Below the pieces are notes generated by a model. It searched no databases and was not told where the DNA came from. It worked only from the letters and a program-made list of their open reading frames with translations. DNA of 47,184 bases from Minisyncoccota bacterium. Its GTDB lineage: Bacteria > Patescibacteriota > Minisyncoccia > Phycocordibacterales > CAIRYW01. The DNA lies in assembly GCA_041665985.1 (NCBI GenBank), contig JBAYHV010000002.1:1-47184 (forward strand), given 5' to 3'. The number at the start of each line of letters is the position of its first letter. Position 1 is the stretch's first letter. Shown piece after piece: positions 33,844 through 37,802 of this stretch. The position numbers were made by a program, and so were the translations under genes.

Positions 33844-35304
33844 TTACTTCGAATCTCTAGCATGTTCAAAATCTTTTCCTATTTCAAAAAGAATTTCATC
33901 TTGCATGTAAGGAGCTATCAATTGTATTCCCAAAGGAAGAGGTAAATCATTTGAAGTATTTCCTGAAGGAATAGAAATTGCGGGCGCTCCAATCAAGTTT
34001 GCAGTCACAGTAAAAATATCCTCCAAATACATTTCAATAGGATCAGCTGTTTTCTCACCTATTTTAAAGGCTGAATTTGGAGTAGTTGGCATCAAAATAA
34101 CGTCAACTTTTTCAAAAGCTATTTCAAAATCTTTCTTAATTAAAGATCTAACCTTTTGAGCTTTTCCGTAGTACGCATCATAATATCCAGCAGAAAGGAC
34201 ATAAGTTCCGAGTAAAATTCTTCTTCTAACTTCTTTTCCTAAAAGCTCTCCTCTGGTTTTCATATAATCTTCTGTCAAAGAATCACCTTCTTTTAATGAA
34301 CCGAATTTCACACCATCAAAACGCGCCATATTTGAAGAAACTTCTGCTGGCATAAGAATGTAATAAACTGGCAGAGAATATGAAATACGAGGAAGCTCAA
34401 TATCTACGATCTCATATCCGGTAGATCTGAATTTCTCAATTGATTCATTAAAATTTTTTAATACTTCTTCTGAAATTCCTTTCGTCTCTAAAATTTTTCT
34501 TGGTACGCCGATTATTTTTTTACCTGCCCGCCCTGCTCTCGCTTGCGAAGCCTGCGGGTTTTTCAAATTTTCTTCCTTTGAGTCTTTTGAAGTTGAATCA
34601 AAATCATCTTTACCTTCAATGACCTTAAAAAGAATTTCTGCATCTTCAATTGTTTTTGCAACTGGACCAATTTGATCAAAAGAAGAACCCATAGCAATGG
34701 CGCCATAACGAGAAACTCTTCCGTAAGAAGGCTTCATTCCAACCACCCCGCAGAATGCTGCAGGTTGTCTAATTGAACCTCCTGTATCAGTACCTAGGGC
34801 TCCAAGAGCCATATCTGAAGCAACTGAGGCGATTGAACCTCCTGATGACCCTCCAGCAACGCGAGATGAGTCATAAGGATTTTTTGTTGGTCCAAATGCA
34901 GAATTTTCTGTTGAACCACCCATCGCAAATTCATCCATGTTGCACCTTCCCATGAAGATCGCTCCGCTTTTTTTAAGTTTTTCAATAACAGTTGCATCAT
35001 ATGTAGCAATATAATTTTCTAAAATTTTAGAAGCCGCCGTTGCAATTTTTCCTTTTATTAAAATATTATCTTTTATAGCTAGTGGAATTCCCAACAACTC
35101 ACCTTTTTCACCATTCGCTATTTTTTTATCAGCTTCCTCCGCTTGAGCAATTACATCATCATAAATTTCCAGGTATGCATTTAGGTCAGAATTTTTTTCT
35201 TTAATTATTTCAAGGTAAGCAGAAGCTAAGTCTACAGCAGAAAATTCTTTCGCTTCAAGGCTTCTTCTAGCTTCTTTAATTGTTAATTCTTTTAGATTTA
35301 TCAT
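33844..35304 (-). CDS. gatA: Glu/Asp-tRNA amidotransferase subunit A
   Basis: 486 aa with the amidase signature GGSSGGSIASVA and GTDTGGSIRQPA. Confidence 0.95.
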   Translation of the reverse strand: MINLKELTIKEARRSLEAKEFSAVDLASAYLEIIKEKNSDLNAYLEIYDDVIAQAEEADKKIANGEKGELLGIPLAIKDNILIKGKIATAASKILENYIATYDATVIEKLKKSGAIFMGRCNMDEFAMGGSTENSAFGPTKNPYDSSRVAGGSSGGSIASVASDMALGALGTDTGGSIRQPAAFCGVVGMKPSYGRVSRYGAIAMGSSFDQIGPVAKTIEDAEILFKVIEGKDDFDSTSKDSKEENLKNPQASQARAGRAGKKIIGVPRKILETKGISEEVLKNFNESIEKFRSTGYEIVDIELPRISYSLPVYYILMPAEVSSNMARFDGVKFGSLKEGDSLTEDYMKTRGELLGKEVRRRILLGTYVLSAGYYDAYYGKAQKVRSLIKKDFEIAFEKVDVILMPTTPNSAFKIGEKTADPIEMYLEDIFTVTANLIGAPAISIPSGNTSNDLPLPLGIQLIAPYMQDEILFEIGKDFEHARDSK

Positions 35305-35353
35305 TTATTTTAAATTTTCTTATCTCCTATCTCTTGCTTCTTACTTCTTAGCT

Positions 35354-35635
35354 TTACATTACTTTTTTTACTTTTACAAAATCACCTTCTCTCTTTGGTG
35401 CAGAGGCCAAAAGAGTTTCAGTCTGAAGACATGTTTCATTTGAATTATCATCCTCTCGAAGATTATTATAAAATTCAGGAGCATCAATTTTTTCTTCTCC
35501 AGCTATTGCAGAATCAATAGTTCCAACATATTCAAGGATGGAACCTATTTCTTTTGCGACACTTTCAAGCTCAGAATCAGAAATTTCTAATCGAGAAAGG
35601 ATAGCTAGTTTTTTTACGTCTTCTTTTGAGATCAT
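35354..35635 (-). CDS. gatC: Glu/Asp-tRNA amidotransferase subunit C
   Basis: The track ORF starts at TTG 35701. The family-like start is MISKEDVKKLAILSRLEISDSELE at 35635 (93 aa). Confidence 0.85.
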   Translation of the reverse strand: MISKEDVKKLAILSRLEISDSELESVAKEIGSILEYVGTIDSAIAGEEKIDAPEFYNNLREDDNSNETCLQTETLLASAPKREGDFVKVKKVM

Positions 35636-35738
35636 ATTAACAGTATATAGCGACTGGTGTTTGGTGGCTAGTGGAATGCAAAAAACACTACAAATTTGCA
35701 AATATTGTCAAAAATGACAACAAAACTCAATTTAAAAA

Positions 35739-37802
35739 TTATTTTATCAATTTCAAAAAATCTTCTTCCAACAGAACTTTAACTCCAAGTTCATTTGCTT
35801 TATCTAGTTTTGAACCAGGATTCTCTCCCGTCACCACGTAACTTGTTTTTGCAGATACAGAACCAACCACGTCCCCGCCTAGATCTTTGATCTTTTTCTT
35901 CGCTTCGTCCCTGCTCATACTTGAGAGAGTTCCAGTTAGAACAAAAGTTTTGTCTTGAAGTTTTTTTATCCCACCTTTTTTTTCTGGATAAATTATTTTT
36001 ATTTCTTGAAGTAATTCACTAATTATTTTCTGATTCGCTTTTTCTTTTCTCCAAGCAATAATTGAATCCGACATATTAGGACCAAGACCATTTATATTTT
36101 CTAGATCCTCTTTTGAAGCATTCAAAAATTCATCAATATTTTTAAAATTATGAGCCAGATCTTCTGCTGTTTCTTCACCTACTTGAGAAATAGAAAGAGC
36201 TGTCAAAAATCTTTGAAAAGTTATTTTTCTCCTATTATTAATAGATTCTAAAAGGTTATTTGCCGACTTTTCGGCAAATCTTGGAAGTGAAAGCAAGTCT
36301 TCTTTTTTGATCTTGAAAATATCTGGGGCACTGGAAATTACCGCATTATCTAAAAGAAGATCAACTACTTTTGGCCCTAGGTCCTCAATATCAAAAGCAT
36401 TTTTTGAAGCAAAATAATAAAGTTTTCTTCTATCTTTCCCGAGACAATTTGTATTCGTACAATAAAGTGCCGCGCTCTTGTCTTGCCCATCATTGACTGA
36501 GCCGGCAGGCGATGGCAAGCGGGTCATCTTTTTAATTCCAACCACAATCTTTTGCAAACTACTTCCACAAGCAGGACATTTTTTTGGCATCGAAATTGTT
36601 TTTTCTTTTCCATTGCGAAGCTCTGTCAAAACTTTTACAACATCAGGAATAACATCTCCTGCTTTTCTAAGTATTACGGTATCTCCAATTTTAAGTCCAA
36701 GTCTTTTTATTTCATCTTCATTATGAAGGGTTGCCCTTGAAACAGTAGAACCCGCAACAGAAACAGGTACCAACTTTGCAACAGGGGTGATCACTCCTGT
36801 TCTACCGATCTGAAAAGTCACATCTTCTACAATAGTCGTAACCTCTTCTGCAGGAAATTTAAAAGCAATTCCCCATCTTGGAGCCTTACCAGTGTAGCCA
36901 ATTATATCTTGAAGCTTTTTTTCATTAACTTTGATTACAATTCCATCGATCCAGTAATCTTCTTCCGGTGATTCCTTCATCCATTTTTTCCAGTAATTAA
37001 TGATCTCTTGAATATTTGAAACTTCCTTAAAATGTTTACTTGTCTTAAATCCAAGAGTTTGTAATTTTTTTAATTCATCCACTTGAGTAGCAGGAAAATC
37101 ATCAAACTTTGCAATATCATAAACAAAATTTTGAAGCTTTCGTTCTGCTGCAACTTTTGGATTAAGCTGTCTAATTGATCCTGCCGCAATATTACGAGGA
37201 TTTGCAAAAAGCGGTTCTCCCTTCTTTTTTCTTTCTATATTAAGTTCCTTAAAAATTTTTTTGGACATCCAAATTTCTCCCTCAACAATAATATCAACCG
37301 GTTCTTTTAATCTAAGAGGAACAGACTCAATTGTTTTTACATTTAAAGTTACATCTTCACCAATTTTTCCGTCACCTCTTGTAGCCGCTTGAACTAAAAG
37401 TCCTTTTTCATAGGTCATCACAACCTTTAGTCCATCAATTTTTAATTCACAAACATAAGTTGGAATTTCCTTTATACCCTCTTTTTGAAGAAATCTTTTT
37501 ACACGATCATCAAAAGCTTCTATTTCTTTCTCATTAAAAGCATCGTTAAAAGACCATTGTGGAACTTGATGCACTACTTTTTTAAATTCATCTAAAGCAA
37601 CCCCCGCAACTCTTTGAGTTGGAGAATCTGGAGTGATCAATTGCGGATATTCTTCCTCAAGCAAGACAAGCTCATGCTTGAGTGAATCAAGTGCTTCAGG
37701 AGAAACATCCACTTTATCAAGAACATGATATTCATATCTCAATTTATCAATTAATTCTCGGAGTTTTTTTACTCGCTCAATTTTTTCTTGCGGAGCTTTC
37801 AT
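35739..37802 (-). CDS. ligA: NAD-dependent DNA ligase
   Basis: 687 aa with adenylation motif ELKIDGL, an OB fold, a Zn finger (CPACG...YCTNTNC), HhH repeats and a C-terminal BRCT domain. Confidence 0.95.

Follow-up and report, generated by a model that had tools for sequence, protein, structure and literature searches.

We analyzed a stretch of 47,184 nucleotides (nt) from a Minisyncoccota bacterium of groundwater (GenBank assembly GCA_041665985.1, contig JBAYHV010000002.1, positions 1 to 47,184), referred to below as the window. Two of its genes, ligA (NAD-dependent DNA ligase) and gatA (a subunit of Glu-tRNA(Gln) amidotransferase), each carry a short block rich in guanine and cytosine (GC) that lies in frame within the coding sequence. 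We conclude that these blocks are probably copies of small, non-autonomous, hairpin-forming mobile elements, a family that we call F1, and that they were retained in frame. We put the probability of this reading at about 80%. An original prediction, made from the letters of the window without database searches, had proposed that small GC-rich palindromic elements settle both in intergenic DNA and in open reading frames (ORFs), where they persist in frame. F1 bears this out, as the family is multicopy, has a covarying stem, and occurs in coding and non-coding DNA. The prediction of one single family does not hold. The block in a DUF5069 gene appears to be an element of ~86 nt of another type (F2), and two further hairpin families (F3 and F4) are present.

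The window has a GC content of 34%. The proteins nearest to its LigA and GatA are those named Candidatus Paceibacterota in the databases, a phylum that belongs to the candidate phyla radiation (CPR). Three genes, gatA, gatC, and ligA, are all on the minus strand. Six related loci entered the DNA comparison, the closest of them L001 (82% nucleotide identity). A separately assembled contig of the same genome from the European Nucleotide Archive (ENA), L090, extends 9.6 kb past the right end of the window. Low-GC control DNA amounted to ~580 kb, of which ~160 kb came from a GatA-based contig scan whose listed matches were mostly from distant phyla. The genes and the two insertions are as follows.

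33844..35304, minus strand: gatA, Glu-tRNA(Gln) amidotransferase subunit A, 486 amino acids (Pfam Amidase, E 1e-144; PDB GatA, E 5e-136)
34523..34558, plus strand: gatA insertion, CCTGCCCGCCCTGCTCTCGCTTGCGAAGCCTGCGGG, 36 nt, 27/36 G/C (75%)
35739..37802, minus strand: ligA, NAD-dependent DNA ligase, 687 amino acids (Pfam domains; PDB 2OWO, E 2e-153)
36482..36523, plus strand (consensus orientation, antisense to the gene): F1 copy in ligA, 42 nt (covariance model 63.7 bits, E 1.5e-13)

The ligA insertion

The element in ligA takes up 14 codons within the Cys4 zinc-finger loop and translates as 13 residues between a threonine and an aspartate (LigA residues ~427-441). All four cysteines of the finger (C409, C412, C448, and C453) are intact. 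The original prediction placed the GC-rich block at 36469..36525; there is an insertion here, but its extent was drawn too wide, since the element covers only 36482..36523. The element is missing from relatives in both protein and DNA alignments. Ortholog alignments of LigA and GatA had been suggested as a check, and they find both insertions to be lineage-specific.

The CxxC pair and the third cysteine are separated by 35 residues, a spacing that had been contrasted with that of the Escherichia coli enzyme. The alignment to E. coli LigA (2OWO) agrees, with a 21-residue gap in the finger, but the loop of the nearest relatives was longer than that of E. coli before the element arrived, and the window LigA has a net gain of 11 codons over these relatives. 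We modeled LigA with AlphaFold2 (mean predicted local distance difference test score, pLDDT, 73.7). The finger strands at residues 415-423 and 442-448 are well predicted, and within the finger region scores below 50 occur only at residues 423-441. Because these low scores are confined to the segment between the two strands, the element is predicted to form the tip loop of the zinc ribbon.

Copies and structure of F1

The F1 consensus, CCTGCCCGCCATTGGCTGAGCCTGCAGGCGATGGCAGGCGGG, is 42 nt long and has a GC content of ~70% (alignment A4, 17 copies, mean column identity 92%). A second copy of the ligA block is found in L090, ~10.7 kb away in the same genome. The two copies (CCTGTCCGCCATTGGCTGAGCCTGCAGGCGATGACAGGCGGG and CTTGCCCATCATTGACTGAGCCGGCAGGCGATGGCAAGCGGG) are ~81% identical, and their outer stems differ by two compensatory double changes (CCTGTC/GACAGG versus CTTGCC/GGCAAG). 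A search with blastn-short in the window and its close relatives returned no further copy of any of the insertions.

More copies were found in metagenomes of the Joint Genome Institute (JGI), which were scanned with an exact pattern, a 25-nt degenerate core for which we estimate ~1 chance match. The core matched in 14 contigs with a GC content of 33-45%. L105, one of these, is identical in sequence to L090, and five more come from the same sample; the F1 copies come from assemblies of several unrelated samples. In all 14 contigs the flanks are unrelated AT-rich DNA, and the similarity stops at the same two boundaries. F1 recurs in at least 17 places at 81-100% identity, in coding and non-coding DNA and in both orientations. 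Some loci have multiple copies (three in L097 and four in L106), and there are 3-4 copies per 6-11 kb in some contigs. Nearly all of the strongly GC-rich islands in these AT-rich contigs are F1 copies. A scan of viral contigs gave no F1 match.

The copies share a 6 bp outer stem (alignment columns 1-6 with 34-39) that has a standard pair in every cell. Two of the stem pairs vary on both sides (CG:7 / UA:6 / UG:1 and CG:13 / UA:1), and the covariation score is greater than in all 500 shuffles and in all slid controls. RNAalifold prefers a register shifted by four, which is without covariation. In the L093 copy, the perfect inverted terminus extends to 12 nt and is compatible with both registers. 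A covariance model built from the alignment (R1) recovers all F1 copies at 58-74 bits. It matches only the ligA copy in the window, and in L090 it finds the ligA element again (20324..20365) with the same 63.7 bits. The additional L090 copy is nested in the loop of a TCCGA/TCGGA hairpin of an F2 element. F1 is absent from the F2 element in the window, which gives a comparison of filled and empty sites.

F1 within genes

Ten F1 copies are in long ORFs with Pfam domains that span the element, and ~60% of the observed copies are intragenic. The ten copies belong to eight gene families: LigA, PyrD (dihydroorotate dehydrogenase), a UvrD/PD-(D/E)XK helicase-nuclease (three copies), leucyl-tRNA synthetase (LeuRS), a DinB-type polymerase, a PfkB kinase, RibH (lumazine synthase), and ScpA. 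All three helicase-nuclease copies are in one ORF (L097 460..1371), where they are read in three frames and occur in both orientations, all open.

Five of the six reading frames of the F1 consensus are open. A single frame, which gives RL(P/S)SPAGSANGGQ, accounts for seven of the ten coding copies (p ~0.0015 for any one frame, by our calculation). The lone coding copy in the frame that contains a TGA has lost this stop (GGCTGAGCC to GGCTTCGCC). Four variants are 43 nt long and all are extragenic, and every coding copy is 42 nt. The bias toward one frame, the lost TGA, and the extragenic location of the 43-nt variants are together the pattern expected of selection on a translated insert. We infer that F1 elements are translated and are not removed from the transcript.

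The gatA insertion

The gatA insertion is the sole 36-nt stretch of the window with at least 26 G/C. The original prediction had its position exactly right, with a count of 26 G/C among the 36 bases where there are 27. It encodes PQASQARAGRAG (GatA residues 250-261) and has no stop codon in any of the six frames. In DNA alignment with six related loci, including L001, these 36 nt are cleanly absent between AAAAA and TAAAAAAA. The 12 residues are missing from all seven of the closest GatA proteins (82-88% identity). They are located between the conserved DSTS and IGVP segments, at a position that is gapped relative to solved GatA structures and where relatives vary in length.

The 5′ end of the insertion is the exact 10-nt F1 terminus, CCTGCCCGCC, and the 3′ end is GCGGG. 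Local alignments are significant against composition-matched shuffles (p = 0.007 for the F1 consensus, 0.0005 for the F1 copy L097_683, and 0.001 for L096b, a diverged F1-related sequence). The blocks CCCGC, AGGCT, and GCGGGCAGG are colinear between the insertion and F1 (coding strand), and CTTGCGA is common to the insertion and the diverged subfamily in L096. Based on the terminus, the alignments, and the colinear blocks, we file the gatA insertion under the F1 superfamily. It may be a diverged or rearranged member, an assignment that is less certain than that of the ligA element.

Both blocks might instead be independent local indels, formed by slippage or template switching and GC-rich because the loops are under selection for Gly, Ala, Pro, and Arg codons, with no mobile element involved. 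The unique LigA insertions of other Paceibacterota fit this idea, as they have a Gly/Ala/Arg/Pro fraction of 0.49 versus a background of 0.23, and those of L008 and L009 have no relation to F1. The gatA insertion, a singleton, also fits. For ligA, the idea is refuted by the recurrence of the block at 81-100% identity in at least 17 places with unrelated flanks. The compensatory stem changes point to constraint at the level of the nucleic acid, and the exact F1 terminus argues against an independent origin of the gatA block. We consider independent indels improbable as a general explanation. Among the remaining indels of at least 9 nt between the window and its relatives, none is longer than 50 nt, the long ones are AT-rich, and a GC content above 60% is reached only at 9 nt.

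Other insertions in LigA

The lineage of L003-L005 carries a separate in-frame insertion of 24 nt in LigA, located after WKKW. Its basis is a perfect 20-nt palindrome, CCTGCCTGCCGGCAGGCAGG, that also occurs elsewhere.

L003 2752..2771 (= L004/L005 7113..7132): palindrome within the LigA insertion
L101 2640..2659: identical palindrome in non-coding DNA of an unrelated contig

By sequence, this insertion looks like the F1 stems without the interior (p = 0.006). A 36-nt in-frame insertion with 86% GC is found in a different loop of LigA in L007 (3326..3361, GCCACCGCCGCGGGCGGGGTCCCGCTTGCGAGCGGG). It consists of two perfect hairpins; the LigA is 60% identical and the genome has a GC content of 43%. 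Its similarity to F1 is not significant, despite the word CCCGCTTGCG that it has in common with the insertions of the window.

There are exactly three occurrences of the motif CYCGCTTGCS in the window, one in each insertion, and another in the L007 insertion. We dropped it as a family signature: it was defined post hoc and is not the F1 core.

The DUF5069 insertion and F2

A third insertion interrupts a DUF5069 gene, and a related element is intergenic.

29748..30266, minus strand: DUF5069 reading frame, split by a TGA into a called ORF of 122 amino acids and an intact in-frame C-terminal part of 49 codons
29865..29948, minus strand: DUF5069 insertion, 84 nt, 28 codons, with an in-frame TGA at 29898..29900
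32728..32813, plus strand: F2 element, 86 nt, intergenic, lineage-specific relative to L002

The DUF5069 insertion is missing from 15 homologues and from the DNA of L004. Its predicted RNA fold has an energy of -29.4 kcal/mol (z = -5.2). It was tested against F1 and is not F1-like. The insertion and F2 have in common the module TCCGA-loop-TCGGA(G/A)CAAAG (p ~0.003), and a GAGAG block occurs near the 5′ end of the insertion. From these sequence features, the insertion appears to belong to a second family that is related to F2 and distinct from F1. The original prediction linked it to gatA through the 11-mer GCAAGCGAGAG. This word does occur exactly twice in the window, in these two blocks (p ~0.001 for the pair), but an 11-mer was shared in 4 of 100 whole-window shuffles and the match is weak evidence for kinship.

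F2 in the window is bracketed by a TTTATT duplication (32722..32727 and 32814..32819) that is evident when the filled site is compared with the empty site in L002. The 64 nt upstream of the L090 F1 copy match window positions 32722..32785 at 84% identity. This second F2 copy (L090 9551..9690) is beyond the right end of the window and is the one with F1 nested in its hairpin loop. We found no clear terminal inverted repeats for F2.

The insertion most likely truncated its DUF5069 gene. The gene may have been inactivated very recently, or its stop may be read through or bypassed. As an alternative to translation, elements of this kind could be removed from the transcript as mini-introns, or skipped by the ribosome like the byp elements of yeast mitochondria, and leave the proteins unaltered. 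The stable hairpins would suit such a process, as would the DUF5069 gene, whose coding sequence past the TGA is intact and still in frame. However, removal or bypass would leave no need for a length divisible by three or for an open frame, and the coding copies of F1 are all 42 nt and open, with the 43-nt variants limited to non-coding DNA. The loss of the stop from the sole copy in the stop-containing frame and the use of one frame in seven of ten coding copies also argue against it. In addition, the gatA and DUF5069 insertions have no match to Rfam above chance (E ≤10), and a scan of the window at gathering thresholds has no match at any insertion, including the ligA element. We think it very unlikely that the elements go untranslated. 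The gatA block seemed to us to resemble the 3′ end of 5S rRNA, and we considered the capture of fragments of 5S rRNA or another structured RNA at breaks. We dropped this because cmscan at E ≤10 gave no rRNA, tRNA, or other credible match on the insertions.

The one-frame bias (seven of ten copies) could also mean that selection has favored RL(P/S)SPAGSANGGQ as a functional protein module, such as a site of interaction or modification, with the DNA palindrome secondary. We give this little credence: three other frames or orientations are used within genes, there are non-coding copies, the host proteins are functionally unrelated, and the covariation preserves base pairing and not amino acids. 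At the low coverage of the genome (~7.5x word depth), GC-rich reads could conceivably have been joined chimerically to AT-rich contigs, yet an assembly or sequencing artefact is next to excluded, as the window, the ENA contig, and the Logan contigs carry the same sequences and F1 occurs in the assemblies of several unrelated samples, all in frame in conserved genes. The Logan contigs, an independent assembly of a groundwater run, have the gatA and DUF5069 insertions in identical form, with no alternative form. CRISPR repeats, off-target integration by Cas1, and diversity-generating retroelements were dropped as candidates, given that there are no arrays and no long target duplications and that the hosts are housekeeping genes.

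A candidate enzyme and the proposed spread of F1

The window encodes a transposase among type IV pilin genes. The gene and the hairpins around it, which form family F4, are listed here.

41867..42535, minus strand: RAYT-like (REP-associated tyrosine transposase; REP, repetitive extragenic palindrome) Y1 (HUH) transposase, 222 amino acids (Pfam Y1_Tnp PF01797, E 9.6e-9, above cutoff)
41857..41881, minus strand: F4 hairpin TTGTGCGAGGCTTAGCCTCGCACAA, directly downstream of the Y1 gene
42544..42562, minus strand: F4 hairpin GAGGCTAAGCCTCCCACAA, directly upstream of the Y1 start codon
42720..42741, minus strand: third F4 hairpin, ~190 nt upstream of the Y1 gene

The Y1 protein contains HFH and YIHLNP motifs. 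Its best NCBIfam match is REP-associated tyrosine transposase (NF047646), with 38.7 bits, which is below the cutoff of 80. F4 consists of the hairpin GAGGCTWAGCCTC followed by CACAA, and the three copies that flank the gene are in direct orientation. The gene and the three hairpins (41857..42745) make up a REPtron-like unit. The unit is missing at this position in L001, L004, and L005. F4 is also found in L097, which is rich in F1.

Y1 transposases of this kind (IS200/IS605 and RAYTs) work on DNA hairpins in single-stranded form, without producing a target duplication. F1 is without target duplication, which fits the action of such enzymes. We tentatively propose that F1 may be mobilized as a single-stranded DNA hairpin by a REP-associated type of Y1 (HUH) transposase, although we regard this as less probable than not.

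As we envision it, F1 elements would have spread through AT-rich, Paceibacterota-like genomes. Their survival in essential genes would depend on a length divisible by three and on the five open frames. The loop produced by the commonest frame would be small and flexible, with a high content of Ser, Pro, Gly, and Ala. The copies that persist would be those in surface loops or variable linkers, such as the tip of the LigA zinc ribbon and the DSTS-IGVP linker of GatA.

Several observations count against F1 as a mobile family present in both genes. No second copy of the gatA insertion was found in any sequence reached, covariance model R1 misses this insertion, and its F1 membership is based on the 10-nt terminus and the statistics of local alignment. 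It had been suggested that the insertions be mapped onto structures; this succeeded for the LigA loop, at the tip of the zinc ribbon, and the GatA model (from a 14-sequence alignment, mean pLDDT 55.6) is too poor to place the insertion. No target-site duplication was seen for F1 at 17 sites, and no conserved target motif was evident. The affiliation of the JGI contigs is taken from their low GC content and gene content, and translation of the elements is deduced from frame statistics. With regard to the enzyme, F4 and F1 differ in sequence, and the remaining F1-bearing loci, all of them short, yielded no Y1 gene.

A bolder possibility is that Paceibacterota and related CPR bacteria host active, phylum-specific, tiny GC-rich hairpin transposons that are moved in trans by RAYT-like Y1 enzymes, routinely land in essential genes, and are translated. 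Stop-containing copies, as in the DUF5069 gene, might even be read through or bypassed. We offer this as speculation and doubt that it holds in full. If true, such a system would be a major unrecognized source of new surface loops and of noise in marker alignments, convergent with the invasion of Rickettsia, likewise a lineage of reduced genomes, by palindromic elements.

Comparison with known elements

The best-known in-frame palindromic insertions are the Rickettsia palindromic elements (RPEs), which are ~150 bp long and form ten families (PMC10969869). F1 and RPEs are alike in that they are multicopy palindromes that occur in frame in unrelated housekeeping genes of a reduced-genome bacterium, encode a conserved tolerated peptide, and are also present in non-coding DNA (PMC10969869, PMC3733652). 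RPEs are longer (~100-150 bp), however, occur in an alphaproteobacterium, and in some cases carry a CGTC tag. F1 is 42-43 nt long with ~70% GC in a genome of 34% GC, has CPR-like hosts, and lacks CGTC and GTAG. Its length sets it apart from the RPE families.

REPs are a second point of comparison. REPs are imperfect palindromes of 20-40 bp, and F1 is likewise short, GC-rich, and imperfectly palindromic, with at least 17 copies. REPs are also reported from within genes, often genes for replication and repair (PMC3733652), and LigA, DinB, and the UvrD-like helicase as F1 hosts echo the repair genes. REPs are defined by a conserved GTAG or CGTC tetranucleotide at one end (PMC3733652). Neither tag is found in the F1 consensus (CCTGCCCGCC...GGCAGGCGGG) or in its flanks, and ~60% of F1 copies are intragenic, whereas REPs are mostly extragenic. 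The RAYT-like gene of the window is flanked by hairpins, which are those of F4 and not F1 and are in direct rather than inverted orientation.

By analogy only, F1 most resembles the GC42 clusters of yeast mitochondria in its size, GC contrast, and mosaic variants. Like F1, these are 42-nt GC-rich palindromes in an AT-rich genome, with constrained stems and free loops. Variants of GC clusters seem to arise by the merging and shuffling of units (PMC4478555), and F1, the gatA variant, and the L096 variants similarly form a mosaic of shared blocks. GC clusters differ in being eukaryotic and organellar, in having an AG target site, and in being mostly intergenic, and they have no sequence relationship to F1. 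[quoted passage not shown] F1 itself is far shorter than their 70-300 bp and has no target duplication.

Among the papers searched, we found none on such elements in Patescibacteria or CPR, which is not proof of absence. If our interpretation of F1 is correct, selfish hairpins that write peptide loops into essential enzymes would not be limited to Rickettsia and would also occur in CPR bacteria, which have small genomes and are probably symbiotic. The 42-nt consensus and model R1 make it possible to survey CPR genomes, to date invasions, and to estimate rates of insertion and loss. The elements would disturb alignments of the markers LigA, GatA, and LeuRS and create false "lineage-specific inserts". 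Because they inflate alignments and can split genes (as in DUF5069), CPR annotation pipelines should mask or flag them. They would also reveal where in essential enzymes an extra loop is accepted, and so serve as natural experiments in loop tolerance.

Other repeats and RNAs

Family F3 is represented by two inverted copies of a hairpin repeat of 29 nt, TTGTCATTCCCGCGCAGGCGGGAATCCAG, at 11561..11586 (plus strand) and 11609..11634 (minus strand), in the spacer between convergent ORFs. Variants in the loop and stem occur in L093 (three copies), L102, L098, L040, and L016. Among the matches listed for the pattern GTCATTCCCGCGNNNGCGGGAATC are more than 118 viral contigs of IMG/VR, some with regularly spaced runs of the repeat. 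By these pattern matches, F3 appears to be a very widespread element.

There is an Rfam match to a group I intron at 32400..32603 (plus strand, 58.6 bits with a gathering threshold of 50); the neighboring tRNA and conserved protein-coding genes are all on the minus strand. The region 32338..32727 is 95% identical to L002, compared with ~77% for the neighboring genes, and is therefore taken to be a conserved RNA. An ORF of 226 amino acids (31609..32289, minus strand) is at the position of a LAGLIDADG-type ORF in relatives.

Near the release-factor gene, the 3′ part of tRNA-Thr(CGU) and its downstream flank are duplicated (28911..28965 and 29076..29130, ~50 nt, ~90% identity). The duplicates bracket a block of ~115 nt with a GC-rich core (29000..29050), an arrangement that resembles the duplication of the attachment (att) site by an integrated element. 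The original prediction proposed that such tRNA-adjacent blocks are kin to the gene insertions. What supports this comes to a single 11-nt match: the exact 11-mer GCGAAGTCCGC of the tRNA-Thr block is also found after the F1 copy in L103 (p ~0.025). Between tRNA-Asp and tRNA-Met there is a 41-nt direct repeat (31340..31380 and 31477..31517, 97.6% identity) that adjoins a GC-rich block at 31309..31367. A further GC-rich intergenic block, between pyrG and tRNA-Gln (23866..23943), scores 8.5 bits with the F1 model, which is at chance level. It contains a 9 bp stem (CCCGCCTCG...CGAGGCGGG) and may represent either a small RNA or a further hairpin element.

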